In this document: positions 29,087 to 61,319 of the stretch, piece by piece | Layout: each line of letters opens with the position of its first letter | Numbering within the stretch: the first letter of the stretch is position 1 | Assembly (NCBI RefSeq): GCF_028368995.1 | Contig: NZ_JAQNDL010000001.1 | Coordinates: 1,504,001-1,568,000, forward strand | Length of the DNA: 64,000 bases | Direction: 5' to 3' | DNA from: Nannocystis bainbridge | GTDB taxonomy: Bacteria > Myxococcota_A > Polyangia > Nannocystales > Nannocystaceae | Made by a program: the position numbers and the translations under genes | The notes under the pieces: generated by a model | Told to the model about the DNA's origin: nothing | The model's input: the letters and a program-made list of their open reading frames with translations, nothing else | The model's database searches: none

Positions 29087-30205
29087 TCACTCGGCGGCGA
29101 GCACCGCCAGCGCGTCCGACGACTCGTAGTAGACGGCGTCGAGCCCACGCAGCAGCGCGGCCCGCTGTTCGCGGGAGAACACCGGCTCTAGCGACTTCAA
29201 GACGCGAGGGTCGTAGAAGCGGAAATACACGCGGTCCGCCTCGCCCTCGACCTCGACCATCAAGAACTGTCGCAGGTGCCGCCGCACCGCCTCGAGCGGC
29301 TTCTTGCTGACGAGGAACACGCCCCACGCGTCGCCCCAGCCCTCATGGACCAGGCGCTCGAGCAGCAGGGAGTCGGCCCGCAGCTGGACCACGTACGGCG
29401 CCACGTCGTCGAACGCGCGGCCCCTCTCGCCGTCGAACAGCGAGGCGTAGGGATCGACGCTCTCCTCGATGAGCTGGAGCGCCCGCTCGGAGCGCGCGGC
29501 GTCGACGACCGCGTAGAGCGTGCCCGCGTCGCACGGGGCCCGGAGCGTGGCGAGAGCGGCGAGCCCCGCCTCGCTCGGCGTGACCGGCCCGGGCGGCGGC
29601 GTGTAGTCCTCGACGAGGAAGCGGAAGCTCGTGCGGCCGGCCGTCATCCACCCGCGGCTGGCCAGCTCGCCGACGAAGCACGGCTCGCCGTCGACGGCGA
29701 TCCGGTGCGGGTCGAGGGCCTGCACGTGGGCGCACACGCCGTCCCACACGATCTGGAAGTGCGGCGAGCCGCCGGCATCGGCGTGGACCACGAAATCGGA
29801 CCGCGCAGTGCCCACGGTGCGCGGCTCACCCGGCTCGAGGATCAGCTTGTGGTAGCTCTCGCGGCCCGACCATACTTGCAAGATCGCTCGACGCCTCGTC
29901 GCCGGCCCGAGCGGCAGCAGGTGATAGCGCGCGAACGTGTAGTCGAGCTCGCCGAGCGCGTCGGCGTATTCGGGGTCGAGCTCGCCGAACTCGCGGAGGC
30001 CGAGCGGACCGAGGTTGGTGCGCGCGCGATCGTCAGGGTGAGGGATCCGGCCGCGGGCGGTGGTCCGGGCCATGAACTCGAGCTGGACGGCGATCGTTCG
30101 CAGCGCGGGCCAGCGCGAGGGGTCGAGCGCGCGGGTGTGGGCGCGGGCCTCGGCGAGCACCTCCGCGAAGGCGTCGCGCGACGTGATCCGCATCAGCTCG
30201 GACAC
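29087..30205 (-). CDS. Tsi6-like immunity + degenerate FHA + DUF4123 T6SS adaptor fusion (copy 1)
   Basis: N-term QLEFM...NLGPLGLREFGELDPEYADAL; middle VGT..SDFVV..HFQIVWDG..VDGEP..AGRTSFRF; C-term LYAVVDAAR..SLFDG..APYVVQL..WGVFL..HLRQFLMV..YFRFYDPRVL. Confidence 0.85.
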   Translation of the reverse strand: MSELMRITSRDAFAEVLAEARAHTRALDPSRWPALRTIAVQLEFMARTTARGRIPHPDDRARTNLGPLGLREFGELDPEYADALGELDYTFARYHLLPLGPATRRRAILQVWSGRESYHKLILEPGEPRTVGTARSDFVVHADAGGSPHFQIVWDGVCAHVQALDPHRIAVDGEPCFVGELASRGWMTAGRTSFRFLVEDYTPPPGPVTPSEAGLAALATLRAPCDAGTLYAVVDAARSERALQLIEESVDPYASLFDGERGRAFDDVAPYVVQLRADSLLLERLVHEGWGDAWGVFLVSKKPLEAVRRHLRQFLMVEVEGEADRVYFRFYDPRVLKSLEPVFSREQRAALLRGLDAVYYESSDALAVLAAE

Positions 30206-30208
30206 GCG

Positions 30209-31198
30209 TCAGCCCCACGGGTGAAAGCGCTTGGGGATCATGACCTGCGTGGCGCCGCCCTTGCAGTGCACGGGATCCGCGAGCGACCAATCGTCGACGA
30301 TGGGGGCGGCGGTGCTCTGGAGGCCGAGAGCGGGATCGCCGAAGGTGACCTCGCGCGGCTCGCGGACCACGGGCGGCGGGCTCGGCTTGCCGTCGACGAG
30401 CGCGTAGGCGGAAGACGAGCAGCCGACCTCCTCCGGCGTGATCGACGGGTCGAGCGTGAAGTACTGGCCGGTGCCGGCGCCCGGGATGCTGCGCTGAAAC
30501 AGGGTCTGCTCGCTGAACGAGCGCACCGAGACGGGCCGGCTCAGGTCGATGCCCTTGATGTGCGAGAGGATCTGGCTCGGCTTCATCTTGCTGGGCCCGT
30601 GCGCGGCGTAGAACTGATAGGCGACGGCGTAGCGGGTCTGCACGCGCAGCTCCGCGAGGCCGTCGTCCGCGTCGTCCTGGGCGGCGAGCTCGTGCTTCGA
30701 GACGTCGAGGTCGGCGAAGGCGTCGCGGCCGCTGCGGGCGCCGGGCGGCGGCTCGTCGTCGTCGAGGGTCGCGCTGCCCGGGTCGGACGCGATCGGCTCG
30801 GCGGAGTCGTCGAAGGTGTCGACCGCGACGCGCTGGCGCTCGCACTCCTCACAGAAGGGCGTCCCGCGGCGCGCGGCGACCCGGAGCGCGAAGCTCTGCG
30901 GGGTGTCGCCGATGATCACGGTCGGGCAGCCGGCCGTGATCATGTCGCCCGAGGCGTGCACGGCGGGATCGGTGCGGCGCGCGGCCTGGCGGTGATTGAT
31001 CAGCACGGTCGCCGAGCCCTGCTTGATCTTGTCGGTCGGACCGACCGGGAAGCACACGACGCGATCGTCCTTCCGCGCCGCCGGGAGGAAGCCGACGATC
31101 ACGTCGGCGCTGCCCGAATAGATCGGCCCGCCGACGTGCGGCACGGGCCCGTCTTTGGGGCAGCTGTGATAGTCGCTGATCCGGGCGGCTTCGGGCAT
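30209..31198 (-). CDS. PAAR protein with C-terminal Ntox46/Tse6-like NAD(P)+ glycohydrolase toxin (copy 1)
   Basis: EAARISDYHSCP..PAARKDD..QAARRTD..GCPTVIIG; toxin SHIKGID..GQYFT..QSTAAPIVDDWS..GGATQ. Confidence 0.88.
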   Translation of the reverse strand: MPEAARISDYHSCPKDGPVPHVGGPIYSGSADVIVGFLPAARKDDRVVCFPVGPTDKIKQGSATVLINHRQAARRTDPAVHASGDMITAGCPTVIIGDTPQSFALRVAARRGTPFCEECERQRVAVDTFDDSAEPIASDPGSATLDDDEPPPGARSGRDAFADLDVSKHELAAQDDADDGLAELRVQTRYAVAYQFYAAHGPSKMKPSQILSHIKGIDLSRPVSVRSFSEQTLFQRSIPGAGTGQYFTLDPSITPEEVGCSSSAYALVDGKPSPPPVVREPREVTFGDPALGLQSTAAPIVDDWSLADPVHCKGGATQVMIPKRFHPWG

Positions 31199-31389
31199 GA
31201 CAACGGCCTTCTGCGGGTTCGTGGCAGCCTAACAGAAGACGCGGAGGGCGACACACGAACGGCGATGTGGCCATGGGACGCATCATGCGCGCCGCGGTCC
31301 GCGGATGCGTGCGCGACGCGGGCGCGCGCGCGCTTTCGTCGGCGCAATGGACAGACGCGGGTCATCGCGGGCATGATGGTCGGACGCCC
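31199..31389. promoter_or_regulatory. Divergent intergenic region conserved with 58288..58478
   Basis: 191 bp; shared blocks CAGCnTAACA, CATCATGCG, ATGCGTG, CAATGGACAGA, TCGCGGGCAnGATG. Confidence 0.6.
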
Positions 31390-33414
31390 GTGTCCGGTTC
31401 GTTCTCTCCGCGCGTCGGTGACCGCGTCCGCGAACGCTTCGAGCTGATGGCGCCGCTGCGCGAGGGCGGATCGACGCAGGTGTTCCTGGCCGTCGATCAT
31501 CAGGTCGGCCGCGAGGTGGAGCTGCTGCTGTTCGACCCGACCTGCGTCCGGGCCGAGTCGTGGAGCGCGTTCGCTCGAGCGGTCCGCGCGGCGGCCGCGG
31601 CCAAGATCCCGGGCCTGGTGCTGCCCCGGGGCTTGACGGAGGCCGCCCCCGCCCCGCCGTATTGCGCGACGGACGTACAAGCGGCGTCCAGCCTGGCGCG
31701 GCTGGTCGAGCGCGGCCCCACGCCCTGGCAGCGCGCGCTGACCCTGTGCGAGCGGATCGCGGCGATCGTCGAGCGCGCGCACGCGGCCACGGGCGTGGCC
31801 CACCGCGCGCTGACGCCGTCGCGCTGCGTCGTGACCGGGCGCGACGAGGTGCGGGTGCTCGACTACGGGGTCGTCGAGGTGACGGGCGTCGAGGACTCGC
31901 CGTACCGCGCACCGGAGCAGCAAGGCGACAGCGGCGATCCGCGGAGCGATGTCCGGGCGATCGGGGTGATGCTCTGTGAATTGATCACGGGCCAGCGCGT
32001 CGGCGACGAACCACCGCGGGTGGACGCGATCGCCGACCTGAGCCAGGGCGTCCGCGACCTCGTCCACAAGGCTCTGGGCGCCGATCCAGGGCAGCGCTAC
32101 GCCGATCTGGCGGCGCTGCGCGTGGCGATGTGCGCCCTGCTCGAGATCGAGTTCGTCGCGGTCCAGCCCGCGCCGCCGCCGGCTTCGCGCGAGCCGAAAC
32201 CAGCCCCGCGCGCCGAGCCGTCGCCCGCCGGCGCGGAGCCCCCGTTGCACGGCGGCGCGACGGCGTCTTCGCAGCGCGACGTACGGCGCGACACGGCGCC
32301 TCCGCAGTCGCGCCGCACGGCCCCGCAGTCCGTGGTCCCCTCGGCGCTCCCGCCTCCGCAATCGCGCCGCACGGCCCCGCAGTCCGTGGTCCCCTCGGCG
32401 CTCCCGCCTCGCTCGGCGAAGCCTTCGCCCGCCGCGCCGCCGCCCCTGCTGCCGCCGCTGGAGGACGGGACCCAGGTGCTCGCGCTCGATTCGATCGCGC
32501 AGGCACCGGCCGCGCGCACGAGCCGGACGGGCGCGCAGGTCCCCGTCCCCGCGAGCGACGGGACTCAGGTGCTCGCGCTCGATTCGCTCGCGCCTGCGTC
32601 ACCGACTGCGCGCACGCAAAGGACAGGCGCGCAGGTCCCCGTCTCCGCGGCGAGCGATGGGACTCAGGTGCTCGCGCTCGATTCGCTCACGCCCGCGTCA
32701 CCGGCTGCGCGCACGCACGAGACGGGCGCGCAGGTCCCCATCCCGGTGAGCGACAGGACCGAAGTGGTGTCGCTCGAAGCGATCGCGCAGGCAGCTCAGG
32801 CTGCGCGCGCGCGCAAGACGGGCGCGCAGGCGTCTGTTCCGCCGGCGAGCGCGAGGTCGGGGGCGACTTCGCGGCGCGCGGTCAACGGCTCGCCTGCAGC
32901 CTCCACCCGCCCCGGCACCGGGTCCCAGCGGGCCATCGCGCGTCCGGAGCCGCCGGTCGACGCGACGGTCGTCGCGCGCTCGCCCTTGAATCCTTCGCTC
33001 TCGCGGCTGCCGGCGCCGGCCTCGGCCGCCGCGAATGGCGTCACTCGACAGCCCGCGAATCGATCGACCCCGTCGCCCGCGATGGCGACATTCGTCGGGG
33101 CGCGGCCCGCCTCCGACTCGACGATGATCCTGCCGGCGCCCGAGCTCCCGGTGCGAGCGAGCGAGCCGGATCGCACGGTGATCTGGCGACCGCCAGGCGC
33201 GTCTGAAGACGACGCCGCAACGTCGCGCGGATCCTCGGAGGTCGCGCCGGAGCTGCCGTCGCACGAGCAGACCAGGATCCTCGCGCCGGGGCCCGTCCCG
33301 CCGAAGTCACCGCGGCTGGCCGCGGCCGCAGGATGGTCGCTGCAGAAGAAGCTGCTCGTCGTCAATGTCGCGCTCGCCGTGGTCATCCTGGTCGGGGTGA
33401 TCGTCGCGACCTGA
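31390..33414 (+). CDS. Membrane-anchored Ser/Thr pseudokinase with repetitive Pro/Ala/Ser linker (copy 1)
   Basis: Hanks fold remnants REGGSTQVF, VELLLF (no Lys), HRALTPSR (no Asp), DYG, YRAPEQ, SDVRAIG; C-terminal TM. GTG 31390 chosen by alignment with the paralog. Confidence 0.82.
   Translation: MSGSFSPRVGDRVRERFELMAPLREGGSTQVFLAVDHQVGREVELLLFDPTCVRAESWSAFARAVRAAAAAKIPGLVLPRGLTEAAPAPPYCATDVQAASSLARLVERGPTPWQRALTLCERIAAIVERAHAATGVAHRALTPSRCVVTGRDEVRVLDYGVVEVTGVEDSPYRAPEQQGDSGDPRSDVRAIGVMLCELITGQRVGDEPPRVDAIADLSQGVRDLVHKALGADPGQRYADLAALRVAMCALLEIEFVAVQPAPPPASREPKPAPRAEPSPAGAEPPLHGGATASSQRDVRRDTAPPQSRRTAPQSVVPSALPPPQSRRTAPQSVVPSALPPRSAKPSPAAPPPLLPPLEDGTQVLALDSIAQAPAARTSRTGAQVPVPASDGTQVLALDSLAPASPTARTQRTGAQVPVSAASDGTQVLALDSLTPASPAARTHETGAQVPIPVSDRTEVVSLEAIAQAAQAARARKTGAQASVPPASARSGATSRRAVNGSPAASTRPGTGSQRAIARPEPPVDATVVARSPLNPSLSRLPAPASAAANGVTRQPANRSTPSPAMATFVGARPASDSTMILPAPELPVRASEPDRTVIWRPPGASEDDAATSRGSSEVAPELPSHEQTRILAPGPVPPKSPRLAAAAGWSLQKKLLVVNVALAVVILVGVIVAT
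32297..32830 (+). repeat. Coding tandem repeats: PPQSRRTAPQSVVPSAL x2 and ~37-aa DxTxVxxLxx..ART..TGAQ units x4
   Basis: Visible in both DNA (gg(g/t)act/acccaggtgctcgcgctcgattcg recurs) and protein. Confidence 0.8.
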
Positions 33415-33829
33415 GGCGAGCGCCCGCGCGTGAGTCGCACGAGTGGCTTCGCGCGTCGCTGCGCGGACCTCTGCGCATGCTCGCCAGCGCTCGTCGCCGT
33501 CGTGACAGCCGCGCAAGAAGGCCGGCCCATGGACCGGCTATGTCCAGTGCGTATCCGGTGCGTCGTCGCCCGCGCCTCCGGGTGGACCGGGCGTCACGCG
33601 TCGGGAATCGTAGGAGTCCTCGAACCGCGCCCGGGCGAGGGCCTCACGGGCGATCCGAGGGGGTCCACGCGGCATCCGCATGCGCACGCCAGTTCGGTGA
33701 TTCACGCCGATCGTCCGGGGCGCGCGGGCTCGTCGCGCCGTCCGTGCCGGAGGCGACCGTGTTACAGTCCGCCGCGATGGACTCGGTGATGTCTCCGCGC
33801 TCGCGCAGCCACCGGGGCGAGGGACCACT

Positions 33830-36022
33830 TTGAGCACCCCAAAGGTCATCGGGTTGAACATCCGCAAGGAGGCGAGCGGACGCAGCGCCAAGCTCGGCCT
33901 GCTCCCACGCGGCGCACGGATCGAGCTCGGCGAGCGCTCGTCGGACGGCAAGTGGGCGCGGATCGGCCGCGTGGTGTCCGGCCAGATCGCCCCGGTGCAG
34001 CAGAACGGCGCCCTCGATCCCACGGCCGCCACCGGCTGGGTGTTCATCGGCGAGCTCGATCAAGGCGCCGCCCAGCCCGAGGTGTTCGACGAGGTCGTCG
34101 CCCCGGCCAAGCCGGTCGCGATGGCGGCCGGCGAGTTCGTCGGATACATCGGCGAATATCAACAGCACGTCGACGCGCTGCAGACCCCGGTCCGCGGGCG
34201 CCGTCCGCTGCTCCACCTCGAGGTGTTCAGCGGCGACGACGTCCCGGGCTTCATCGAGAAGTGCCGGCAATACGCCAAGACGCTGCCGGCCGGCAGCGGG
34301 ACCCTGTTCGTGGTCGAGAAGGGCGCGAAGCTGGTCCAGCCCGCGTCGTCGAACGGCGAGATCGGGGCCGACGACCCGGTGGCGCCCGTCGCCAGCAAGG
34401 CCGCCGGCGCGTGGGTGCAGGTCAAGCGCGCGACGCTGCAAGTGCTGGAGCGCCGCCCGCTCGGCGAATACGACACCGCGACCAAGACCTACGCCAGCGG
34501 CGCCGTCTTCACCGGCTGGTTCGTGGGCGCGCAGGACGGTCAGCGCACGCAGGACGAGGCCGCCTCGGGACGCCTCGGCTATACGCGACGCGAGGTGCTG
34601 GTGCCGACGGGCCAGCCGGTGTGGGTGGAGCGCTCGGCGCTCGACGCCCGGGCGACGGCGTGCGTGCCGTTGAAGACGTGGAGCGAGTATCCGCTGCGGG
34701 TGGCCAACGCCGCCGATCCGCCGGTCACCCTCACCCGCGTGATCTCGAAGACGGAGCTCGAGCGCACGCCGGCGAGCGGGCGGGCCACCGACCCCGATGG
34801 CAACCTCTGGTGGCGCGTGTCGGCGCGGCGCGACCCCGACTCGAGCGGCAACACCACGGCCGTCGGCTGGGCCTGTGAAAAGGGCCACGACAAGGTGTCG
34901 TGGCAATCGCCGTGGGCCTGGCCGGGCTTCGAGTTCGTCGAGGAGGGGGAGATCGAGCCGGTCGATCAGTGGTCGACGATGCTCTACCGCATGGGCATGG
35001 CCAACGACGAGGAGCTGAGCGACTTCAAGATGCGCGCCGACAAGGTCGACAAGAGCGCGCTGCTGCAGAAGCTCTACGAGCTGATCGACACCAACAAGAA
35101 CTGGATCTTCGAGCCCCACGAGCTGCGCGCGGCGATGCGGCAGCCGCTGCTGGCGCAGGCGTTGAGCCGGATCCTCAGCCGCTACGAGAGCGAGTGGGGC
35201 GGCGAGGACGCCAAGTGGGACGCCCTCGACCCGCTGGTCCTCGACGGCAAGCCGGAGTGGCAGGCCGAGAAGCTGCGGATCAAGGGGCTGCGGTGGTGGC
35301 CGCAGGTGGCCGCCAAGGTGCAGGGGTTCCCGAGCAGCCCGGTGGCCTACCACATCCATCCGACGGGCCTCATCGAGAACTTCTACTCCCAGCCCAGCGC
35401 CACCGCCGCCAGCGCCGACACCGGCGGCGCGCGGGAGAAGAGCGGCGCGGTGTGGGTCAGCCGCTTCATGCCCAGCCAGGCCATCTCGGACCTCAAGGAC
35501 CCGTTCCGCACGAGCGTCACGAACTTCTTCAACGCCCTCGCCACCGCGGGCGTGGCGAGGAACATCAACACCACGCTGCGCCCGCCGCAGCGCTCCTATT
35601 TGATGTACTACGCCCGCGAGATCACCGCGGGCCGGCTCGCGCCCGACAAGGTGCCCGCATTCGTCCCGCAGGACGGCGACGCGCCGGTCAACATCGACTG
35701 GGCGCACCTCGACAGCGCGGGCAAGCCGAACCTCACCGCCGCCCGGCAGGGGGCGCGAGAGATGGACACGAGGTACGGAGCCGCCGGCGCGATCGGCATG
35801 GCCTACCGGTCGAATCACAACAAGGGCCAGGCGATCGACGTCAGCTTCACGCCGGCGTGGGGCGTCGGCAAGAGCGTCGTCGACGCCACCGGCAAGACCG
35901 TGGCGATCGGCTCGAAGCGAGACCTGCTCGAGGTGGGCGCGACCTACGGCGTCTACCACTGGACCTACCACGGCGCGAAGACCAAATCCGACGAGCCGCA
36001 CTGGTCGCTGACCGGGAATTGA
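33830..36022 (+). CDS. Putative peptidoglycan-targeting effector: SH3b-like start, second half of M23/WHIX-like domain, EF-hand-like loop, C-terminal M15-type peptidase
   Basis: GLNIR..GWVF; VAMAAGEFVGYIGEY..LLHLEVF; IDTNKNWIFE; TLRPPQRSYLM..SNHNKGQAIDV..DEPHWS. TTG start after GAGGGA. Confidence 0.72.
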   Translation: MSTPKVIGLNIRKEASGRSAKLGLLPRGARIELGERSSDGKWARIGRVVSGQIAPVQQNGALDPTAATGWVFIGELDQGAAQPEVFDEVVAPAKPVAMAAGEFVGYIGEYQQHVDALQTPVRGRRPLLHLEVFSGDDVPGFIEKCRQYAKTLPAGSGTLFVVEKGAKLVQPASSNGEIGADDPVAPVASKAAGAWVQVKRATLQVLERRPLGEYDTATKTYASGAVFTGWFVGAQDGQRTQDEAASGRLGYTRREVLVPTGQPVWVERSALDARATACVPLKTWSEYPLRVANAADPPVTLTRVISKTELERTPASGRATDPDGNLWWRVSARRDPDSSGNTTAVGWACEKGHDKVSWQSPWAWPGFEFVEEGEIEPVDQWSTMLYRMGMANDEELSDFKMRADKVDKSALLQKLYELIDTNKNWIFEPHELRAAMRQPLLAQALSRILSRYESEWGGEDAKWDALDPLVLDGKPEWQAEKLRIKGLRWWPQVAAKVQGFPSSPVAYHIHPTGLIENFYSQPSATAASADTGGAREKSGAVWVSRFMPSQAISDLKDPFRTSVTNFFNALATAGVARNINTTLRPPQRSYLMYYAREITAGRLAPDKVPAFVPQDGDAPVNIDWAHLDSAGKPNLTAARQGAREMDTRYGAAGAIGMAYRSNHNKGQAIDVSFTPAWGVGKSVVDATGKTVAIGSKRDLLEVGATYGVYHWTYHGAKTKSDEPHWSLTGN

Positions 36023-36034
36023 TTCGCGCGAACA

Positions 36035-36106: not shown

Positions 36107-36154
36107 TGACGAGTCGCGGGGTCGCTGACAAGAACCGGCGGCCCGGCGCCGCGC

Positions 36155-53513: not shown

Positions 53514-54464
53514 TTACCGCGGCCGACCGAGATCCTTGAGCACGGCCCCGGTCGTCCGATCGACGATGCGCAGCGCGTGCGATGTCTTGGGCCCGTCGCA
53601 TTCGAAATACACGCGGGTGGCGGTCCCGACCATCGCGTAGCCGCCGGTCCCGCCGCACGACGAGGTCCACAGCACGGTCCCGGTGCGCGCGTCGATCGCA
53701 GAAGTCTCACCTTGCCGGATCAGCACGGTGCCGCCGACGAGATCGAGGGCCTCGATCCTGCGGCCCTTCGGGTCGAACGGCAGCCGGTAGGTCGGCTGCC
53801 CCGCCGTGTCGTAGCCGACGATCGTGACCTCCGGTGTGCCCGGGCTCTTGACCTCGATCCCGACCGATTCACCGGTGACCGGGTCCGTCAGCCGCGCCTT
53901 GCTGGTCACGAAGTCGCCCTCGCAGCGCGCGTGCTTCACCGTGGTGCACAGCAGCGGGAGCGAACTCGAGTCGCAGGCCGGCGGCGTCGCGGCGTCGTCG
54001 CGCTGGCCGGTCGCCACGTCGAGCACGAAGCGCACATGATCGATCTGGTGGACCCCGACCTTGTCGCCCTCGACACACAGCCGCTCGACCTCGTCGGTCA
54101 GCGCGAGCGTGGTGCGGGTGGCCCCGTTCGTCGACTCGAGGATCTCCAGCCCTCGCGCCCGCGCTATCACGACCGCCCCGCCGGCGACGACTGCCTCGTC
54201 TCTCGGTTCGATCCGCAGATCGGGCCGGCGCCACAGCGGCTTGAAGGTGGCCCCGTCGAGCGCGAGCACGCCGTCGTCCACGAACCACGCCACGACATCC
54301 TCGAGCCCGTCGCCGTTGAAGTCGCCGAGGACCGGCGGCCCGCCCATCCAGAACCGGTACTCCGTGGGGTCGCGCTCCTTGGCGCCGAGACAACCGACGA
54401 GCGCCGTCAGGGCGAGCCCAGCCGCGCTCGCGGCGCTCCTCCGACCTCTGCGTGCATGAAGCAT
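53514..54464 (-). CDS. Lipoprotein with FG-GAP/PQQ-like beta-propeller repeats
   Basis: Lipobox LVGC; GDFNGDGLEDVV; ALDGATFKPLW, AIDARTGTVLW, VDRTTG repeats. Start uncertain. Confidence 0.72.
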   Translation of the reverse strand: MLHARRGRRSAASAAGLALTALVGCLGAKERDPTEYRFWMGGPPVLGDFNGDGLEDVVAWFVDDGVLALDGATFKPLWRRPDLRIEPRDEAVVAGGAVVIARARGLEILESTNGATRTTLALTDEVERLCVEGDKVGVHQIDHVRFVLDVATGQRDDAATPPACDSSSLPLLCTTVKHARCEGDFVTSKARLTDPVTGESVGIEVKSPGTPEVTIVGYDTAGQPTYRLPFDPKGRRIEALDLVGGTVLIRQGETSAIDARTGTVLWTSSCGGTGGYAMVGTATRVYFECDGPKTSHALRIVDRTTGAVLKDLGRPR

Positions 54465-54572
54465 CGAAAGCACTCTACCCGATCTCGCAGCCCGACGACG
54501 GCTGCGTCCACGCGCGCGATCGCGGCGGCGCGCGATCATGAGACACCGGCGCCGACGCGCGTCCTGCTACGA

Positions 54573-54932
54573 TTACCGCCGGGCGTCCTCGTATCGCCGC
54601 ACCTCGGCGATGCCCGCCTGGTACCACAGCTCGGCGATCGGCGCGTCGCCCTCGCGCGCCGCCACGATCTCGCGGGCCCACGGCTCGCGGGTATCAAAAT
54701 CGTCGCTGAAGCTCAGCATCAGCGCCGCGATTTTGAACACGTCGCGCTCCGCGTTCATCGCGTAGTCGGCGGCCTTGACCGTCGCCGCGCGCACGACCTC
54801 GAGCGCCTGCGGGTCGCCTGGCCACACCTGCGTCGGCCCGTAGTGTTGGCGCAGCAGCGCGAAGATCCGCCGCTCCGACGCGTCGCGGGCGGCGGCCGTG
54901 ACCTCGCCGCGTTGATGGGCATCGAGCTTCAT
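54573..54932 (-). CDS. Small helical T6SS-accessory-like protein (similar to 36155..36643)
   Basis: MKLDAHQ...KAADYAMNAERDVFKIAALMLSFSDDFDTREPWAREIV; ATG 1 bp after the upstream stop. Confidence 0.68.
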   Translation of the reverse strand: MKLDAHQRGEVTAAARDASERRIFALLRQHYGPTQVWPGDPQALEVVRAATVKAADYAMNAERDVFKIAALMLSFSDDFDTREPWAREIVAAREGDAPIAELWYQAGIAEVRRYEDARR

Positions 54933-54933
54933 G

Positions 54934-56118
54934 TCAGTCGTCGTCCGCCTCGTCGGGGGCTGCGCGGTCGATGTGCACGTGGCTGGCGATGTCGAACAGC
55001 GACTCGACCTTCGAGCCGCCGGACGTCGCGGCGTCGGGGATCCCGTCCTCGTTGGTGTCCGGCATCTTGTCGGTCGGCGACGGCACCGCCGCGCTCGACG
55101 GATAGACCGCGCTGGGCCCCTTCTCGAGCAGGACCACGCGCGAGCGGACCGACCGCGCCGCGTTGTAGAGCCGCAGGTAGGCCGCCCGCCGGGTCGCACC
55201 TCGCATGTCCCGCTGGCCGATCGGCTGCATGTCGAGCGCGCCGCCGTGCTGGTGGTTGCTGTTGGGGACCTTGCTGCCGGCGGCCAGGTTGCGCCGCGGG
55301 TTGCGCCACCCGCTCGACACGTGGACCCGCCCGCCGTACGCCGCCTCGGTCGCGGTCAGCAGCTCGGTCATCGCCGAGTCGAGGATGAGCTGATAGTTGC
55401 CGCGCAGGTCGGCGCGGTCGGTCGCCTTGATGTGATTGCGGTAGGGCACGTGCAGCGTGAACTTGTCCCGCCACATGCGCTGGTCGACGTACTCCTGGCG
55501 GATGATGTCGCGCTCGTCCTGCGTCACCACCTCGACGATCTCGTGCGACTTGCCCCCGTGGGTGATGGTCGCCTTGATGCTGTACTGCACCGGCGGGTTC
55601 GGCTTCTTCGAGGCCGTGATCGGCCGCTGCGCATTGGTGACCTCCGGCGTGTAGTCGAAGCGGTTGCCGGTGCCGGTGCGCTTGGGGATCGTGCCGCTGT
55701 GGGTGCCGACGGGCGTGACCTCCCACGTCGCCGACGCGCCCTCCGGCGAGGCGACGCGGACGCTCAGGGTGCGGAACGACCTGCTCACGTCCTTGCCGAC
55801 CAGGAAGATGAACTTCGAGGCGACGACCCACTCTTTCTCGGAATAGCGGGTCTTCGCGGTGTACTGGCTGCGGTGCTCGAGGATGATCTGCGGCGGGCAG
55901 GTCGCACAGTCGCCGCCCGCCGGCTTGTCGCCGAGCTGCTGATCGGCGGCGGTGCCGGCGTTCTCCATCGTTTTGGAGAAGCGATTCGTCTGGCCCTGGA
56001 CCGGCTCCGGCGACACGGCCCGACCGGTGAAGCTGCCGGGCTGGCCCGAGGTGTTCGGGTTCAGCAGGTCCCACGTGAACCGCGGCGCGGTCAGTCCATT
56101 GTTCCCGGTTCCGCTCAT
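54934..56118 (-). CDS. Putative effector with C-terminal peptidase M15 (D-Ala-D-Ala carboxypeptidase-like) domain
   Basis: VSSGWRNPRRN..NSNHQHGGALDM..SHVHID zinc motifs; directly downstream of the DUF4123 gene; no obvious signal peptide. Confidence 0.8.
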   Translation of the reverse strand: MSGTGNNGLTAPRFTWDLLNPNTSGQPGSFTGRAVSPEPVQGQTNRFSKTMENAGTAADQQLGDKPAGGDCATCPPQIILEHRSQYTAKTRYSEKEWVVASKFIFLVGKDVSRSFRTLSVRVASPEGASATWEVTPVGTHSGTIPKRTGTGNRFDYTPEVTNAQRPITASKKPNPPVQYSIKATITHGGKSHEIVEVVTQDERDIIRQEYVDQRMWRDKFTLHVPYRNHIKATDRADLRGNYQLILDSAMTELLTATEAAYGGRVHVSSGWRNPRRNLAAGSKVPNSNHQHGGALDMQPIGQRDMRGATRRAAYLRLYNAARSVRSRVVLLEKGPSAVYPSSAAVPSPTDKMPDTNEDGIPDAATSGGSKVESLFDIASHVHIDRAAPDEADDD

Positions 56119-56145
56119 CGCCCCACCACCCGTCCCGGCGCGCGC

Positions 56146-57264
56146 CTATGCATGATCGAGCCTCGCCAGCGCGCGCGGCGTCTCGTAGAGCACCGCCTCG
56201 AGGTGACGCAAAAAATCGCCTCGCTGATCGGCGGTGAGCACCGGCGCGACGGTCTGAAGCACCCGCGGGTCGTAGAAGCGAAAGAACACCCGGTGCGCCT
56301 CGCCCTCGAGGTCGATCATCAAGAAGCGCCGCAGTTGCCTGCGCACGACCTCGAACTCGGCCCCGCTGACGACGAACACGCCCCACGCCTCGCCCCAGCC
56401 CTCGCCGACGAGCCGCTCGAGCAGACCGGAGCCGCGCCCGAGGCGGACCAGGTACGGCGCGACGTCGTCGTGCGCGCGGCCCTGCTCGCCGTCGTAGAGC
56501 GAGGCGTATGGATCGACGCTCTCCTCGACGAGCTCGAGCGGGCGGTCGGCGCGAGCGGCGTCGACGATCGCGTACAGCGTGCCGGCGTCGCGCAGGCCCT
56601 GGAGCTGCGCGAGGGCGCGCAGCGCCGCCTCGCCGGGGTTCGGCGGCGCGGGCGGCTGCGTGAAGTCCTCGACGAGGAAGCGATACGTGGTGCGCCCGGC
56701 CTGCATCCACCCGCGGTTGGCCAGCTCGCCGGTCCAGCACGGCTCGCCGCCGACGCTGATGCGGTGCGGATCGATCGCCTGCACGTGAGCACAGACGCCG
56801 TCCCAGACGACGCTGAATTGCGGCGAGCCTGCCCGGTCGCCGTGGACCACGAAGTCGGCCTCGGCGGTGCCGACGGTGCGCGCGACCCCGGGCACGAGCA
56901 CCAGCTTGCGGAAGCCCTCGCGCCCCGACCACACCTGCAAGATCCCGCGACGCCGCCGCGCCGGACCGGGCGCGAGCACGTCGTAGCGCGCGAACGTGTA
57001 GTCGAGCTCCCCGAGCCAGTCGGCGTATTCGGGGTCGGTGTCGGCGAACTCGCGCACGCCGAGCGGGCCGAGGCCCGTGCGCCCGCGATCGTCGGGGTGC
57101 GGCACGCGACCGCGGGCGGTCGCGCCGGCCATGAACTCGAGCTGATCCTCGATCTGCCGCAGCAACGGCCAGCGCGCCGGCTCGTAGGCCCGCGTGCGCG
57201 CGCGGGCCTCCGCCAGCACCTCGGCGAAGGCGTCGCGCGACGTGATGCGCATCAGCCCGGGCAC
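56146..57264 (-). CDS. Tsi6-like immunity + degenerate FHA + DUF4123 fusion (copy 2)
   Basis: Collinear paralog of 29087..30205; LGPLGVREFADTDPEYADWL; LYAIVDAAR..FFRFYDPRVL. Confidence 0.85.
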   Translation of the reverse strand: MPGLMRITSRDAFAEVLAEARARTRAYEPARWPLLRQIEDQLEFMAGATARGRVPHPDDRGRTGLGPLGVREFADTDPEYADWLGELDYTFARYDVLAPGPARRRRGILQVWSGREGFRKLVLVPGVARTVGTAEADFVVHGDRAGSPQFSVVWDGVCAHVQAIDPHRISVGGEPCWTGELANRGWMQAGRTTYRFLVEDFTQPPAPPNPGEAALRALAQLQGLRDAGTLYAIVDAARADRPLELVEESVDPYASLYDGEQGRAHDDVAPYLVRLGRGSGLLERLVGEGWGEAWGVFVVSGAEFEVVRRQLRRFLMIDLEGEAHRVFFRFYDPRVLQTVAPVLTADQRGDFLRHLEAVLYETPRALARLDHA

Positions 57265-57267
57265 GCC

Positions 57268-58287
57268 TCAGCCCTCCGCCGACGGGTGGAACTTGCGCGG
57301 GATCATCACCTGCGTCGCCCCGCCCGGGCAATACACCGCCACCAGCGTGCCCGCGCGCGCATCCTTGAGCGACCAGTCGTCGACGATCGGCGCCGCCGTG
57401 CTCTGCAGGCCGAGCGCGGGCTCGTCGAACGCGACCTCGCGCGGCTCGCGGAGCAGCGGCGGCGGGCCCGGCTTGCCGTCGACGTAGCCGTAGCTCATCG
57501 GCGACACGCCGACCTGCTCCGGCGTGATCGAGGGGTCGAGCGTGAAGTACTGGCCGACGCCGGCGCCGGGGATCGATCTCTGGTGCATCGTCTTGCCGGC
57601 GAACGAGCGCACGATCACCGGCTGCTCGAGGTCGATGCCCTTGATGTGCGAGAGGATCTCGCTCGGCTTGACGGTGTCGGGGGTGTGGGCGGCGTAGAAC
57701 TGATAGGCGACCGCGTAGCGGGCCTGCATCCGCGCCTCCGACAGCCCGTCGTCGCTGTCGAGCATGCCGGCGAGCTCGTGCTTGGTGAAGTCGAGGTCGG
57801 CGAACGCGTCGCGCCCCGATCGCGCGCCCACCGGCGCCTCGTCGTCGAGGGTGACCGTCTCGGGGTCGGGCGCGTCGGGCGTGGCCGAGTCGTCGCGGCT
57901 GTCGTACTCCCGGCGCTTGCGCTCGCACTCCTCACAAAAGGGCGTGCCGAGCTTGGCCGCCTCGCGGAACACGAAGCTCTGCGTCGAGTCGCCGATCACC
58001 ACAGTCGGGCAGCCGTCGACGATCCGATCGCCGCCGATGTGGACCGCCGGATCGGTGCGGCGCGCCGCCTGGCGGTGATTGATCAGCACCGTCGCCGAGC
58101 CCTGCTGGATGCGGTCGCTCGGCCCGACCGGGAAGCACACCACGCTGTCGTCCTTGCGCGCGGCCGGCAGGAAGCCGACGATCACGTCGGCGCTGCCGCT
58201 GAAGATCGGGCCGCCGACGTGCGGTACGGGGCCGGGCTCGACCTTCGGGCAGACGTGCGAGTCGCTGATACGGGCGGCGTCGGGCAT
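57268..58287 (-). CDS. PAAR + Ntox46/Tse6-like toxin (copy 2)
   Basis: MPDAARISDSHVCP..PAARKDD..; SHIKGID..GQYFT..QSTAAPIVDDWS..GGATQ; ATG 58287 by alignment with the paralog. Confidence 0.88.
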   Translation of the reverse strand: MPDAARISDSHVCPKVEPGPVPHVGGPIFSGSADVIVGFLPAARKDDSVVCFPVGPSDRIQQGSATVLINHRQAARRTDPAVHIGGDRIVDGCPTVVIGDSTQSFVFREAAKLGTPFCEECERKRREYDSRDDSATPDAPDPETVTLDDEAPVGARSGRDAFADLDFTKHELAGMLDSDDGLSEARMQARYAVAYQFYAAHTPDTVKPSEILSHIKGIDLEQPVIVRSFAGKTMHQRSIPGAGVGQYFTLDPSITPEQVGVSPMSYGYVDGKPGPPPLLREPREVAFDEPALGLQSTAAPIVDDWSLKDARAGTLVAVYCPGGATQVMIPRKFHPSAEG

Positions 58288-58478
58288 GCGTGCGAGCGCC
58301 GACCAGCGTAACAAAATCCTGCCACGCGCGGCGCGCGGCGCTCCGTGGCGGATCGACTGTCACTGCCATCATGCGATCCACGGGTCGGCGAATGCGTGAA
58401 TGACGATATCGCGCGGCGCGAATTCGCCGGAAACAATGGACAGAGGCCGCCTGTCGCGGGCAAGATGCGAGGTCCTCC
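58288..58478. promoter_or_regulatory. Divergent intergenic region conserved with 31199..31389
   Basis: 191 bp; same blocks (CATCATGCG at 58367, CAATGGACAGA at 58434). Confidence 0.6.
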
Positions 58479-61319
58479 GTGCCCGATCCCTTCTCGCCGC
58501 GTGTGGGCGACCGTGTCCGCGATCGCTATGAGCTGATGACTCCGTTGCGCGCCGGCGGCCCGGCGCAGGTGTTCATGGCCGTCGATCACCAGGCCGGACG
58601 CGAGGTCGAGCTCACCTTGTTCGATCCCGCGTGCGCCGGCGCCGACGCGTGGGCCGGCTTCGCCCGGGTCATCATCGCCGCCACCGCGGCCAAGATCCCG
58701 GGCCTCGTGCTGCCGCGCGGCGTCACCCGCACAGCGCCGACCCCGCCCTCGTGCCTCGCCGACCCGCAGATGGCGCGCGGCCTCGATCGCCGCGCCGAGC
58801 AGGGCCCCACGCCGTGGCGGCGCGCCCTGCAGCTGTGCGAGCGCGTGGCGGAGATCGTCGAGCGCGCGCACGCGGCCACCGGCGCGGCCCACCGCGCGCT
58901 GACCTCGGCGCGCTGCGTCGTCACGGCGCGCGAGGAGGTCAAGGTCCTCGATTTCGGGATCGCCGAGCTCGCGCCGGGCCACGCCGACGATTCACCGTAC
59001 CGCGCGCCCGAGCAGCAACAGGCCGCCGGCGGCCCGCCCAGCGACGTCTATGCAATCGGCGTGATGCTCCACGAATTGCTCACCGGCCAGCGCGCGCCCG
59101 CGGGTCCGCTGCCGCCGTGGAGCCCGCCCGCCGACGCGCCCCCCGAGCTCGCGGAGCTGCTGACGCGCGCCACCGCCATCGCTCCCGAGCACCGCCACCC
59201 CGATCCGGCCGCGCTGCGGACCGCCATGCGCGCGGTGCTCGACGCCGACGCCAAGGCCGCCGCCGCCAGGGCCGTCGCCGAGGCCGAGGCCGCCGAGGCC
59301 AGGGCCGTCGCCGAGGCCAAGGCCGCCGAGGCCAGGGCCGCCGAGGCCAAAGCTGCCGAGGAGAGGGCCGCGGCTGCGCCGGTGCGCGAGGCGACCGTCG
59401 AGCTGCCGCTGCCCGGAGGCAGCAACCTGTCCGCAAAGCCATCCGATCTGCCGCGCCTCGCGGGCGGCGCCGACCTGTCCGCCCGGCCCGCCGATCCGCC
59501 GCTGCTCGCGAGCGGCGCCGACCTGCCCGCGCGGCCATCCGCCGCCCCGGCCGAGCCGCTGCTGGGCGGGACCAACCTGTCCGCGAGGACACCCCCGGCC
59601 CCGCCGCCGCCGCCCCCGCTGCGAGATGTCAGTCTGTCCGAACGGACAGTCGAACTCCCGCTCCCGCCCGACTCCTCGCCGGCCCGCGCCGACCTGTCCT
59701 CCGGGACATCCGCAGCGCCTCCCGAGCCGCGGCCCTCGCAGTCGAGCGCGTCACTCGCCTCCTCGTCCGGCTCGCGCCTCGCCGGCGACCCATCGGCCTC
59801 CGCCTCGTCCTCGTCGCTGTCCGGCTCACGCTCGCGCGGATCAACCTCGCCGTCGCGCGCCCACCCGACGATCGCCCCGGATGATTCGTCATCTTCGTCG
59901 CTGTCCGGCTCGCGCTCGCGCGGATCGACCTCGCCGTCGCGCGCGCACCCGACGATCGCCCCGGATGATTCATCGTCCTCACGCTCGCGGGCTTCGATCG
60001 CGCCAGACGACGCGTCATCCGCGTCGCAGAGCCTCCGGGCCTCGCGCTCTCACTCGACGATCGCCCCGAGTGATTCGGCGTCCGCGTCGCAGAGTCAGCG
60101 AGCCTCGCGCTCTCACTCCACCCTCGCCCCGGCGGATGCATCCTCGTCGCAGAGCCTCCGGGTCTCGCGCTCACACCCGACGATCGCCCCGGGTGATTCC
60201 TCCTCCTCGCTCGGCCGCGCGTCCGTCCCTGGCTCCGCCTCGCCGTCGCGCTCGCACCCCACGCTCTCCTCCGCGTCCTCCTCGTCGCTCCAGCGCCCGC
60301 GCGGCTCGGCCTCGCCGTCCCGCTCGCACCCGACGCTCGCCGCCGAGTCCTCCGCCTCGTCCCTCCAGCGCCCCCGCGGCTCGGCCTCGCCGTCGCGCTC
60401 GCACCCCACGCTGTCCGCCGAATCCTCCGCCTCCACGCGTCCGCGCCCGCCCGGCGCCCCGCCCACGCGGGCCTACCCGACCCTCGCGTCCGCGCAGGCC
60501 CAGGCCGCCGCGTCCTCGTCCTCGCTGTCGCGGCCGCGACCCCCGGGCGCCCCCCCGTCGCGCTCCTACCCGACCCTCGCCCCGTCCGCCTCGCCGCCGC
60601 CGGTCCCCGCGGACCGCACCGAGGTGCTCGCCCACAGCGCCATCGTCGCGGCCGAGCGCGCCCGCACCGGCGCCCACCCGCCGGTGCCCGCCGCCGACAA
60701 GACCGAGGTCACCCCGCGACGCTCCGTGCGCGGCCTGCCCGACGGCTCGCGCGGCGCCGCGGCCTCGGGCGCGGCGTGGCGACGCGACGCCGTCGCCCAA
60801 TCCTCGGTCCTCGCGCCCGGCGATTCGACCGTCATCGCCCCGGCGCCCGATGCAGCCTCGACCGAGGAAATGCCGGTACCCGCATTCGCCCGCGCGCCGC
60901 GAGGCCACGTCGATCCGCCGACCACGTCCTTGCCGGTACCCCCATTCTCGACGCAGGGCCGCCACGTCGATCCGCCGACCGATCAGATCGCGGTGCCCGC
61001 CTTCGCCGACGCGACGCAGATGCTGCACGCCGACGATCTGCTGCTGCCGCCGGCCCCGGTGAGCGATCCGGACGCCACACGGATCTGGCGCCGACCGCCG
61101 GACCCGAGCGAGGTCGAGCCGGCCGCCCGCGCGCCCGAGTCGACGATGATGCTGCCCACCACCGGGGAGACCGTCGTGCACCGGCCAGAACCTGTCCCTC
61201 GGGCCAGGTCATTGCTGGCCGAGTTCGCCAGCTGGTCCCTGCGCAAGAAGCTGCTCGCCGTCAACGTCGCGTTCGCGCTGCTCATCTTGATCGGCGCGCT
61301 GGCAGCGGTCGCCTGCTGA
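58479..61319 (+). CDS. Membrane-anchored Ser/Thr pseudokinase with Ser-rich repeat linker (copy 2)
   Basis: RAGGPAQVF, VELTLF (no Lys), HRALTSAR (no Asp), DFG, YRAPEQ, SDVYAIG; C-terminal WSLRKKLL + TM as in copy 1. Confidence 0.82.
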   Translation: MPDPFSPRVGDRVRDRYELMTPLRAGGPAQVFMAVDHQAGREVELTLFDPACAGADAWAGFARVIIAATAAKIPGLVLPRGVTRTAPTPPSCLADPQMARGLDRRAEQGPTPWRRALQLCERVAEIVERAHAATGAAHRALTSARCVVTAREEVKVLDFGIAELAPGHADDSPYRAPEQQQAAGGPPSDVYAIGVMLHELLTGQRAPAGPLPPWSPPADAPPELAELLTRATAIAPEHRHPDPAALRTAMRAVLDADAKAAAARAVAEAEAAEARAVAEAKAAEARAAEAKAAEERAAAAPVREATVELPLPGGSNLSAKPSDLPRLAGGADLSARPADPPLLASGADLPARPSAAPAEPLLGGTNLSARTPPAPPPPPPLRDVSLSERTVELPLPPDSSPARADLSSGTSAAPPEPRPSQSSASLASSSGSRLAGDPSASASSSSLSGSRSRGSTSPSRAHPTIAPDDSSSSSLSGSRSRGSTSPSRAHPTIAPDDSSSSRSRASIAPDDASSASQSLRASRSHSTIAPSDSASASQSQRASRSHSTLAPADASSSQSLRVSRSHPTIAPGDSSSSLGRASVPGSASPSRSHPTLSSASSSSLQRPRGSASPSRSHPTLAAESSASSLQRPRGSASPSRSHPTLSAESSASTRPRPPGAPPTRAYPTLASAQAQAAASSSSLSRPRPPGAPPSRSYPTLAPSASPPPVPADRTEVLAHSAIVAAERARTGAHPPVPAADKTEVTPRRSVRGLPDGSRGAAASGAAWRRDAVAQSSVLAPGDSTVIAPAPDAASTEEMPVPAFARAPRGHVDPPTTSLPVPPFSTQGRHVDPPTDQIAVPAFADATQMLHADDLLLPPAPVSDPDATRIWRRPPDPSEVEPAARAPESTMMLPTTGETVVHRPEPVPRARSLLAEFASWSLRKKLLAVNVAFALLILIGALAAVAC
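59805..60600 (+). repeat. Ser-rich SRxHPT(I/L)A repeat array (about ten units)
   Basis: Units SPSRAHPTIAP, SRSHSTIAP, SPSRSHPTL, RSYPTLA; includes a near-exact ~84-bp duplication around 59808-59975. Confidence 0.78.

Follow-up and report, generated by a model that had tools for sequence, protein, structure and literature searches.

Two loci in a 64,000-nucleotide (nt) stretch of the Nannocystis bainbridge genome (NCBI RefSeq assembly GCF_028368995.1, contig NZ_JAQNDL010000001.1, positions 1,504,001 to 1,568,000; the whole stretch is called the window) carry known protein families in a new arrangement, a real, recurrent and genus-restricted type VI secretion system (T6SS) effector island. In each locus, a gene for a toxin with PAAR and Ntox46 domains is followed by a gene for a Tsi6/FHA-like/DUF4123 fusion, and a tail-anchored pseudokinase is encoded divergently; a gene of a small protein family, here called sm, accompanies this core. 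We favour, with moderate confidence, the reading that the two loci (islands A and B) are two of four paralogous orphan T6SS effector islands in the genome, in which toxin, fusion, sm protein and pseudokinase take the parts proposed below. The selection and loading of T6SS effectors, which have no common signal, are still only partly understood, and the islands suggest how bacteria arm this weapon.

Since the window is about 70% G+C, its genes were chosen by third-position GC together with open reading frame (ORF) calls. The pairwise identity between islands A and B was 70% for the fusion, 73.5% for the toxin, 61% for the N-domain of the kinase and 36% for its C-terminal stretch. In both islands 3 nt separate the toxin stop codon from the fusion start, and the divergent spacer between the homologous start codons of toxin and kinase (PAAR ATG at 31198 and 58287, kinase GTG at 31390 and 58479) measures 191 nt, as expected from an earlier note on this DNA, which had reported the triad twice with the same order and spacer. 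The same note had described a duplicated module of five parts, including an M15-type wall peptidase. When m15A and m15B were compared by BLASTP, the sole match covered 11 residues at the zinc site (E 1.1). The M15 genes are therefore no duplicate pair, and what occurs twice is the three-part core plus sm. The claimed relationship of the small proteins did stand: smA and smB share 28% identity over 81 aa (E 1e-5), and one family profile matched both.

The domain identities of the toxin were clear from Pfam scans, which found PAAR (PF05488; 56.6 bits in paarA and 63.8 in paarB, cut-off 27) and Ntox46 (43.8 and 48 bits, cut-off 25). Searches against the PDB matched the toxin domain to that of Tse6 (4ZV0_A, E 4.6e-9, residues 204-320) and the PAAR domain to solved PAAR proteins (E 7.5e-18 and 5.4e-6). 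The Ntox46 domain is predicted to be a Tse6-type NAD(P)+ glycohydrolase. No prePAAR match was obtained in paarA or paarB, though the same library detects prePAAR at the related loci G and H of this genome; by eye, no hydrophobic segment suggesting a transmembrane (TM) helix was seen in the toxins, and Pfam scans of the islands found no DcrB/Eag (DUF1795) gene. Just past the PAAR domain, all 17 copies of the toxin described below share the segment AA.RGTPFCEECER.R, in which the CEEC pair is invariant, and we regard this segment as a candidate adaptor docking site. Upstream of the toxin gene, the island A element TGTTAGGCT starts 36 nt before the PAAR ATG; in 14 of the 17 copies such an extended -10-like element precedes the ATG by 19-54 nt, and it occurs 4 times in the 128 kb of window sequence (both strands). 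A 1,699-nt contig from an RNA library, about 95% identical, covers 29512-31204 including the toxin-fusion junction and hints weakly that the two genes are co-transcribed in a relative, DNA carry-over being possible.

In the fusion, DUF4123 scored 113 bits in fusA and 106 in fusB (cut-off 25.8). The Tsi6 model (PF18660, cut-off 26.9 bits) was matched by fusB with 27.2 bits and by copies C and D with 35.1 and 35.2. A profile of the 57-member family found, in the PDB, the FHA domain of FhaA (E 1.9e-11, positions 110-193) and Tsi6 itself (4ZUY, positions 26-85). The AlphaFold2 (AF2) model of fusA, with a predicted local distance difference test (pLDDT) score of 93.3 and a predicted template modelling score of 0.88, consists of a helical domain, a beta-sandwich and an alpha/beta domain, and its top Foldseek matches were FHA domains (target-normalised template modelling score 0.75-0.80, probability 1.00). 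Nothing useful was returned by phmmer with fusA alone against the PDB, and a direct Pfam scan of fusA residues 95-215 gave no FHA match at E up to 1, so the FHA identity of this region comes from the family profile, the relatives and the fold. Relatives of the fusion exceed the PF00498 (FHA) cut-off, and one divergent relative (P0083) has Tsi6, FHA and DUF4123 matches in one protein. Together with the alignment of the kinase to PknB given below, these results largely bear out the domains that had been read from the sequence, namely a PAAR-NADase-type toxin, an immunity/FHA/DUF4123 fusion and a pseudokinase.

For the FHA domain, the fold was right and the binding site was not. The alignment of the fusion family comprised 35 Tsi6-fused rows and 22 FHA-DUF4123-only rows, divided by input order. 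Among the Tsi6-fused rows, the Arg column of the GR pair was gapped in 33, the Ser column of SxxH held Gly in 22 and Ala in 7, and in the (N)G(T/S) loop the Gly column held Arg in 23 and Gln in 5, with Leu/Ile in the Thr column of 33. In the FHA-DUF4123-only rows, the Arg column was filled in 21 of the 22 (20 Arg, 1 His), and Ser, Gly and Thr were found in 19, 20 and 16, respectively. By this alignment, the FHA-like domain of the window fusions has lost its phosphothreonine-binding residues.

DUF4123 adaptors, as described in the available part of PMC11582642, consist of a conserved N-lobe, whose partner is a helix-turn-helix of PAAR or VgrG, and a variable C-lobe, whose partner is the effector; TecT/co-TecT is a split version of these two lobes. 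In the window fusions (372 aa), the DUF4123 match stops at residue 349, leaving 23 residues, and the AF2 model contains no further domain. They thus hold the conserved N-lobe without a C-terminal effector-binding lobe, by analogy the TecT-like state of that source. Two related loci of this genome have DUF4123 proteins of other composition. At locus F (L024:1718-7708, genome C4), vgrG and a short PAAR gene are followed further on by an Imm72-like gene with an ATGA overlap with an FHA-DUF4123 gene, and these last two look like an unfused state of the fusion. At locus E (L023:5309-11735, genome C1:2034309-2040735), vgrG precedes a PAAR-amidohydrolase gene (TsxE-like) and a gene for a 505-aa protein with an N-terminal part that has no assignment, a canonical FHA domain and DUF4123. 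This protein was considered as a possible second immunity-FHA-DUF4123 fusion with a TsxI-like N-terminal part, but a search for stand-alone homologues of that part found none.

The islands belong to a recurrent arrangement. The genome (11.05 Mb) has four toxin-fusion pairs (A-D), and loci E and F match just the FHA-DUF4123 part. Copy C is convergent with the series vgrG, sm (256 aa) and a gene for a 266-aa protein, which had no Pfam match and by eye has what we take to be a GH19-like motif. In copy D the order is toxin, fusion, sm (259 aa) and protein-arginine deiminase. As had been noted, the window itself gave no match for TssC, TssK, TssF or Hcp, and no VgrG was among the genes scanned; elsewhere in the genome the core-gene search proposed in the earlier note found three TssC loci, two loci each for TssK and TssF, and two hcp genes, and vgrG adjoins the related loci E, F and H. 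DUF4123, the vgrG genes beside copy C and related loci, and these core genes uphold the assignment to T6SS spike loading. Counting the 4 copies of this genome and 13 in 6 congeners, toxin and fusion were adjacent in 17 of 17, a divergent pseudokinase was present in 10, and an sm gene lay in 15 of the regions; for the other two, the orthologous sm of L067 lies on the adjoining stretch L060, and the contig of L069 ends 68 nt past the fusion. In 6 copies the fusion gene is immediately followed by sm, and in 4 m15B stands between the two. With 4 occurrences of the core in the genome and 13 in the congeners, recurrence is above chance. In this check of other genomes, which had been set beforehand, the toxin-fusion pair was thus fully linked and the pseudokinase partly so.

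The distribution does not agree with the description of the loci as a conserved myxobacterial cassette. A search of 73 genomes of the order found the full-length fusion in the window's genus only, in 6 of its 10 other genomes, with other genera matching the DUF4123 part alone, and the pseudokinase family was likewise confined to this genus. In a phylum sample of 401 genomes the fusion occurred solely in the window's genome, and two-domain FHA-DUF4123 proteins occurred in three genomes of other families. The nearest database homologues, where named, were from Nannocystis, as were all named ones of the approximately 75 clusters carrying DUF4123 together with Tsi6.

The kinase-like proteins kinA and kinB gave weak Pkinase matches, below or near the Pfam cut-off. 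In the alignment of kinA with PknB (E 2.3e-15), the VAIK Lys is replaced by Leu, the alpha-C Glu by Ala and the catalytic Asn by Arg, and HRD reads HRA; DYG and APE are kept. None of the six aligned paralogues has the VAIK Lys or an intact HRD, which reads HRA in five and HRI in kinD, and DxG and APE are kept; the seventh, read from its translation, has HRA and no VAIK Lys. Judged by these residues, the island kinases are catalytically dead, and the paralogues all end in a TM helix. The nearest other relative of the pseudokinases is an active-looking paralogue that keeps Lys, HRD and Asn (Pkinase 109.7 bits) and is encoded in an operon (L137, genome C2:1004001-1022000) with the order tssB, tssC, kinase and FHA protein, divergent from hcp and clpV. 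The order tssC-kinase is retained in 4 of the 4 congeners checked, and this kinase is apparently active. The main T6SS cluster contains further FHA protein genes (C2:1089524 and C2:1095479).

For each of the seven pseudokinase paralogues of the genome, a PAAR or vgrG gene is no more than about 6 kb away. Three are divergent from toxin genes (A, B and D), G is beside a DcrB gene and a prePAAR-PAAR gene, H2 is convergent with such a pair, H1 directly follows vgrG, and the seventh (L136, genome C2:262001-282000) is about 5 kb from genes for a PAAR protein and then an RHS-repeat protein. This last paralogue stands in a run of kinase genes, of which two upstream and one downstream have good Pkinase scores. 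In five congeners, 15 of the 16 best kinase matches were no more than 10 kb from a PAAR motif, 8 of them no more than 0.35 kb. As paralogues also accompany Eag/prePAAR modules and a vgrG, the pseudokinase appears to be a general companion of spike islands and not specific to the triad; its standing as a part of the module holds to that extent.

Between kinase-like domain and TM helix, kinA has a disordered linker of about 380 aa with repeated T-x-hydrophobic-hydrophobic motifs, 7 of them where 0.7 were expected; kinB has 4 where 0.6 were expected (p 0.0035). Across 8 of 8 proteins the linkers carry 2-9 motifs, compared with 0.3-1.3 expected (shuffle p <=0.03), with the consensus [D/E]RTE[L/V/I][L/V]P[P/Q]. 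For the congeners, 16 of 19 kinase loci were parsed and 3 left out, and 12 of the 16 gave p <0.05, a few of the counted motifs sitting in the TM tail. The usual FHA ligand pattern is Thr with a hydrophobic residue at +3, which the [D/E]RTE[L/V]LP motifs of the linkers would fit.

For the sm family, the true starts of the window genes are probably internal to their ORFs, at 36643 (smA, 162 aa) and 54932 (smB, 119 aa). A word-based search with smA found merely 4 close relatives, and the family profile found 8,737 representative clusters, mostly proteins of about 250 aa with two repeats. For sm itself there was no match in Pfam, in the PDB or among named ESM Atlas entries. With smC, the sm protein of copy C, phmmer against the PDB gave nothing useful and the ESM Atlas gave only unnamed clusters, the one neighbour with a template modelling score >0.5 being a 50-member cluster that is probably its own. 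In a sample of the class, 31 of 301 genomes and 14 of 136 genera had sm, and DUF4123 was found in 29 of the 31 sm-positive genomes versus 11 of the 270 sm-negative ones. Two natural proteins have DUF4123 followed by sm: L098 (462 aa, hhalign probability 93.7%), whose gene adjoins an hcp gene, and P0171 (459 aa). The sm subtypes are 73-91% identical within and 16-37% between subtypes, while the fusions stay 62-73% identical, and each subtype pairs with its own cargo gene. Complex prediction for fusA with smA residues 1-112 gave a median score of 0.32, with 0.00 for the best of three controls, a result the tool itself grades as weak support. Its runs agreed in at least 89% of contacts, with a partner pLDDT of at least 79. 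In the calibration of the tool, 58 of 80 solved complexes passed the mark, as did 2 of 110 mismatched pairs, and the passes at <=0.60 were 7 of the 80 solved complexes and both passing mismatches; these counts hold only roughly here, because our own alignments were used.

Taken together, the natural fusions, the co-occurrence, the pairing of subtypes with cargo and the complex prediction support the comparison with co-TecT made in the earlier note, and sm is probably, by this analogy, the detached effector-binding lobe of the DUF4123 adaptor. The single-domain sm proteins of two subtypes (smA, L061, L063 and L064) share a C-terminal tail, C-P-x(4-5)-[K/R]-R-L-x-x-F-S-S, which is missing in two-repeat and smB-type proteins.

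The candidate cargo differs between copies, and a wall hydrolase is not a fixed part of the island as had been supposed. It comprises two unrelated M15-type proteins, pesticin-like lysozymes, the protein with the GH19-like motif and the protein-arginine deiminase; L061 matched none of the cargo queries. The prediction of an M15-type peptidase in each copy held at the Pfam threshold for m15B (Peptidase_M15_3, cut-off 23.2 bits) and not for m15A (Peptidase_M15_4, 19.1 bits, cut-off 25; SH3_3 also below its cut-off). Both proteins show the stretch S-x-H-x-x-G-x-A-x-D, presumably the M15 zinc-site motif. The genome has no further copies of m15A or m15B, and phmmer with either against the PDB gave no informative match. 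No signal peptide was seen by eye on any candidate cargo, and the cargo proteins have no shared N-terminal loading signal, a C-x-x-C pair being present in 2 of 5 only. Across congeners, an m15A orthologue (90% identical) and the pesticin-like gene beside sm are retained in the orthologous locus L057, and related pesticin-like fragments adjoin sm in L063 and L064. The order fusion, m15B and smB is retained in L058, L059 and L060, and smB orthologues 84-87% identical lie 3' of m15B in three congener loci. From its position after smB, B341 is a candidate periplasmic immunity protein for m15B. The deiminase of copy D (L022:6731-9109, minus strand; genome C1:1874731-1877109; PAD E 1e-96, PAD_M E 7e-18) lies directly after sm, as in two congener copies (L065 and L068), and lacks a signal peptide by eye. 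Its enzymatic type would be unusual for a T6SS cargo, which it may be; a protein-arginine deiminase is not known to have been reported in this role, although no search aimed at the point was made.

These observations can be joined in the following model. The PAAR spike-tip protein would carry its Tse6-type (Ntox46) C-terminal domain as the toxin, which the Tsi6-type domain of the fusion would neutralise in the producer. The DUF4123 N-lobe may dock on the CEEC-containing segment past the PAAR domain, or on a VgrG tail. The sm protein would be the adaptor's missing effector-binding lobe, separately encoded as in TecT/co-TecT, and would recruit a second, island-specific cargo without a signal peptide: the M15-type peptidases and the pesticin-like lysozyme in the window, other enzymes elsewhere. 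The pseudokinase, a dead paralogue of the kinase of the tssB-tssC operon, may be a membrane-tethered accessory of spike loading. Of the elements of this model, domain identities, gene linkage, paralogy, the lost catalytic and phospho-binding residues and the natural DUF4123-sm fusions were observed, and all binding steps, secretion, toxicity and immunity are inferred.

Several findings weigh against this model. Tsi6 stays under the Pfam cut-off in fusA (21.1 versus 26.9 bits), and the profile match in the PDB has merely E 1.3e-3. Residues 1-145 of the PAAR toxin are poorly modelled by AF2 (pLDDT <50), and the helix-turn-helix drawn at 100-127 (helices 100-112 and 117-127) is unreliable. By the calibration of the tool, a score of the level obtained for fusA-smA marks a false pair more often than a true one, unless the pairing was likely from the start. 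Outside Nannocystis, sm lies no more than 10 kb from 13 of 42 DUF4123 matches, leaving 29 without sm inside that distance. One genome (G048) has 9 sm matches and 1 DUF4123 match on separate contigs; sm is often multi-copy and distant from DUF4123, so it is not strictly an adaptor partner. To these are added the place of sm in island A, the incomplete linkage of the pseudokinase and the best solved match of the PAAR domain, which bear on the alternatives.

The pseudokinase may have no loading role at all, being a decayed duplicate of the T6SS kinase carried by descent, or another regulator. We consider this rather unlikely. The divergent gene is missing from 7 of the 17 copies, the catalytic residues are lost, the family is confined to one genus of the order, and the linkage counts come from related, non-independent genomes. 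On the other hand, the open frame, domain, linker motif and TM anchor are kept in the seven paralogues and in the congeners, and the genes stand in three different arrangements beside PAAR or vgrG, which argues for selection.

It is distinctly unlikely, in our judgement, that DUF4123 serves the fused PAAR toxin alone, with the fusion as self-contained immunity and escort and with sm and the hydrolases as separate vgrG-loaded modules. Toxin and fusion are indeed the sole invariant pair, the cargo varies and at L061 escaped all queries, sm of copy C follows vgrG on the opposite strand, and sm of island A is about 5 kb from the fusion, beyond the kinase. A division of this kind would leave aside the natural DUF4123-sm fusions, the co-occurrence of the two families in genomes, the position of sm directly after the fusion in 6 copies or after fusion and m15B in 4 more, and the fusA-smA prediction, weak as its grade is.

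Alternatively, sm could be a family of cytoplasmic immunity proteins or antitoxins, copied and tandemly repeated as in polymorphic-toxin immunity genes. It is small and helical, has no known domain, reaches 9 copies per genome with many lacking a nearby DUF4123, and smB directly follows m15B in the classic effector-immunity order. However, sm proteins have no signal peptide by eye, yet their usual neighbours are wall hydrolases acting in the periplasm; B341, a lipoprotein by eye encoded after smB, suits the immunity role better. Moreover, one family would have to neutralise unrelated enzymes, and it is found fused C-terminally to DUF4123. We therefore hold this reading to be quite improbable. 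Finally, firing of the PAAR toxins by an extracellular contractile injection system (eCIS) and not by a T6SS is very improbable: the best solved match of the PAAR domain is the contractile-injection-system tip protein SalCis10 (E 7.5e-18) and PAAR proteins serve T6SS and eCIS alike (PMC8651086, as far as its available text goes), but T6SS hallmarks stand beside the paralogues (DUF4123 adaptors, VgrG with gp5-type domains, Eag/prePAAR modules), the genome, which was searched for T6SS core genes, has T6SS clusters, and a kinase paralogue lies in the tssBC operon.

The features of the two islands are collected in Table 1.

Table 1. Features of islands A and B in the window (positions are those of the window)
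Feature	Position	Strand	Description and evidence
fusA, 372 aa	29087-30205	-	Tsi6-like ~10-92, FHA-like beta-sandwich ~107-198, DUF4123 N-lobe 230-349; Pfam, profile, AF2, Foldseek
paarA	30209-31198	-	PAAR 1-97, region of linker motif AARRGTPFCEECER ~100-125, acidic linker, Ntox46/Tse6-like ~195-321
Divergent intergenic region A, 191 nt	31199-31389		Extended -10-like element TGTTAGGCT at 31226-31234, minus strand
kinA, tail-anchored pseudokinase	31267-33414	+	Homologous start probably GTG 31390; kinase-like domain, linker, C-terminal TM helix
m15A, 730 aa, candidate cargo	33830-36022	+	SH3_3-like N-terminus, weak Peptidase_M15_4 C-terminus (Pfam)
smA, 162 aa, sm family	36155-36643	-	Family profile E 4e-63; candidate detached effector-binding adaptor lobe
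Pesticin-like lysozyme, 455 aa, second candidate cargo of island A	37040-38407	+	Pfam Pesticin E 1.2e-8, 35.5 bits
B341, 341 aa, lipoprotein by eye (LVGC lipobox)	53514-54539	-	Weak PQQ_2 match under cut-off
smB, 119 aa, sm family	54573-54932	-	Family profile E 7e-38; start 1 nt past m15B stop codon
m15B, 394 aa, Peptidase_M15_3, candidate cargo of island B	54934-56118	-	Pfam 25.3 bits
fusB, 372 aa, second Tsi6/FHA-like/DUF4123 fusion	56146-57264	-	70% identical to fusA; Pfam
paarB, second PAAR-Ntox46 toxin	57268-58287	-	ORF extends to 58314, homologous ATG 58287
Extended -10-like element upstream of paarB	58305-58313		TGTTACGCT
kinB, second tail-anchored pseudokinase, 946 aa	58479-61319	+	Pfam, pairwise and paralogue alignment

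Between islands A and B lie ordinary genes (a methyltransferase, an AsnC regulator, hydrolases, EF-hand proteins and an RND pump). Downstream of the fusion of island A, a 637-aa protein (26408-28321, minus strand) has a Lys/Ala-rich, histone-H1-like N-terminus and a helical C-terminal part, with no Pfam match, and was not seen 3' of the fusion in the orthologous locus L057. A match to SMI1_KNR4 (SUKH-1), a family usually tied to polymorphic-toxin immunity, was found just downstream of island A at about 25982-26321 (minus strand, frame 24741-28376; E 3e-4, under the cut-off); the gene limits around it are unclear because the frame 26408-28321 has the coding signature upstream. Farther out, a 5,772-aa ORF at 698-18016 (plus strand) encodes a non-ribosomal peptide synthetase, with 4 Condensation, 4 AMP-binding and 3 PP-binding stretches in its first 4,000 residues; an ABC exporter is encoded at 18762-20390 (minus strand), and a hybrid histidine kinase (PAS, HisKA, HATPase_c and receiver) at 61335-63731 (minus strand) is convergent with kinB.

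If our preferred reading of the islands is right, the joining of immunity and adaptor in one polypeptide predicts that the antidote escorts the toxin to the spike and is stripped off there. With sm, 8,737 clusters without a Pfam model would become a probable detached effector-recognition lobe of DUF4123 adaptors, which would extend the TecT/co-TecT principle well past Pseudomonas and provide a new marker for cargo effectors. Dead kinases with FHA-ligand-like repeats, tied to spike islands, open a direct way of testing whether T6SS phospho-signalling is linked to the loading of effectors. One may go further and suppose that a kinase/FHA docking code organises effector loading onto the T6SS spike in Nannocystis. 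The kinase of the tssB-tssC operon would phosphorylate the [D/E]RTE[L/V/I][L/V]P[P/Q] motifs in its own linker and in those of the pseudokinases; the pseudokinases would serve as membrane-tethered, multivalent landing pads for FHA-bearing DUF4123 adaptors, PAAR toxins and cargo at baseplate assembly; and in the window clade, FHA domain and private pseudokinase would have shifted to a phosphate-independent contact. Were this true, the immunity-adaptor fusion would be handed to the machine by a dead kinase, but with all steps taken together we think the scheme improbable.

Among known systems, the islands most recall PAAR4/TecT/co-TecT/TseT/TsiT of Pseudomonas aeruginosa, for which Burkinshaw et al. 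in 2018 reportedly gave the gene order PAAR, DUF4123, helper and cargo. This order matches that of copy D (toxin, fusion, sm and deiminase). The likeness extends to the components, namely a PAAR protein, a lobe-only DUF4123 protein, a separate helper and a cargo effector (PMC11582642, in its available part). Unlike in that system, the PAAR protein of the islands itself bears a toxin, the DUF4123 lobe is fused to immunity and FHA-like domains, the cargo consists of wall hydrolases and not of a DNase, a pseudokinase is attached, and sm is likened to co-TecT by role.

The toxin and its immunity resemble the Tse6/Tsi6/EagT6 system of P. aeruginosa, which Whitney et al. are said to have described in 2015: an Ntox46 toxin is borne on a PAAR protein and a Tsi6-type immunity is encoded adjacent to it (PDB 4ZV0, 4ZV4 and 4ZUY were matched). 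Unlike Tse6/EagT6, the islands have no prePAAR match, no TM segments by eye and no Eag chaperone, and unlike Tsi6 (about 100 aa), their immunity is a domain of a 372-aa adaptor fusion. In the H1-T6SS of P. aeruginosa, a threonine phosphorylation pathway consists of PpkA, Fha1 and PppA. Similarly, a Hanks-type kinase and FHA proteins are here encoded with the T6SS core (tssB-tssC-kinase-FHA); in contrast to PpkA/Fha1, the island kinase is dead by its residues, the island FHA domain lacks the phospho-binding residues, and both stand beside effectors and not beside the apparatus.

In Myxococcus xanthus, TsxE/TsxI is an experimentally shown T6SS effector-immunity pair downstream of an orphan vgrG (VgrG2), and the same source mentions a PAAR-bearing tsxE homologue in Nannocystis exedens (PMC5801462, available part), to which locus E, with its vgrG, PAAR-amidohydrolase and X-FHA-DUF4123 genes, corresponds. 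Unlike TsxE, the island toxin is Ntox46 and not an amidohydrolase, and the available text of PMC5801462 is silent on an FHA-DUF4123 protein, sm and a pseudokinase. In a 2020 census (PMC7714669, available part), the additional domain found most often was FHA for DUF4123 proteins (1.1%) and PKc-like for DUF1795 (Eag) proteins (5.8%), there without a mechanism; among the toxic effectors taken from two genes downstream of a DUF4123 gene, none was fused to PAAR. Judged by titles and abstracts, the papers returned by searches on these domains and on T6SS in Nannocystis held no description of a Tsi6/FHA/DUF4123 fusion or of a pseudokinase link, and the islands offer a system in which the FHA domains on DUF4123 proteins and the kinase-like domains on Eag proteins of that census might be explained.

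Finally, the fusion may be compared with the adaptors Tap6 and Tap14 (PMC11582642, available part), with which the islands share the conserved lobe and a variable, effector-specific part that co-varies with the effector family. Unlike in Tap6/Tap14, the variable lobe of the islands would be a separate gene, of a family without a Pfam model, and extra immunity and FHA-like domains stand at the N-terminus of the adaptor. The cysteine pair in the candidate docking segment of the islands is like the VgrG helix-turn-helix motifs in that source, and the docking partner of the fusion is more likely PAAR than VgrG.

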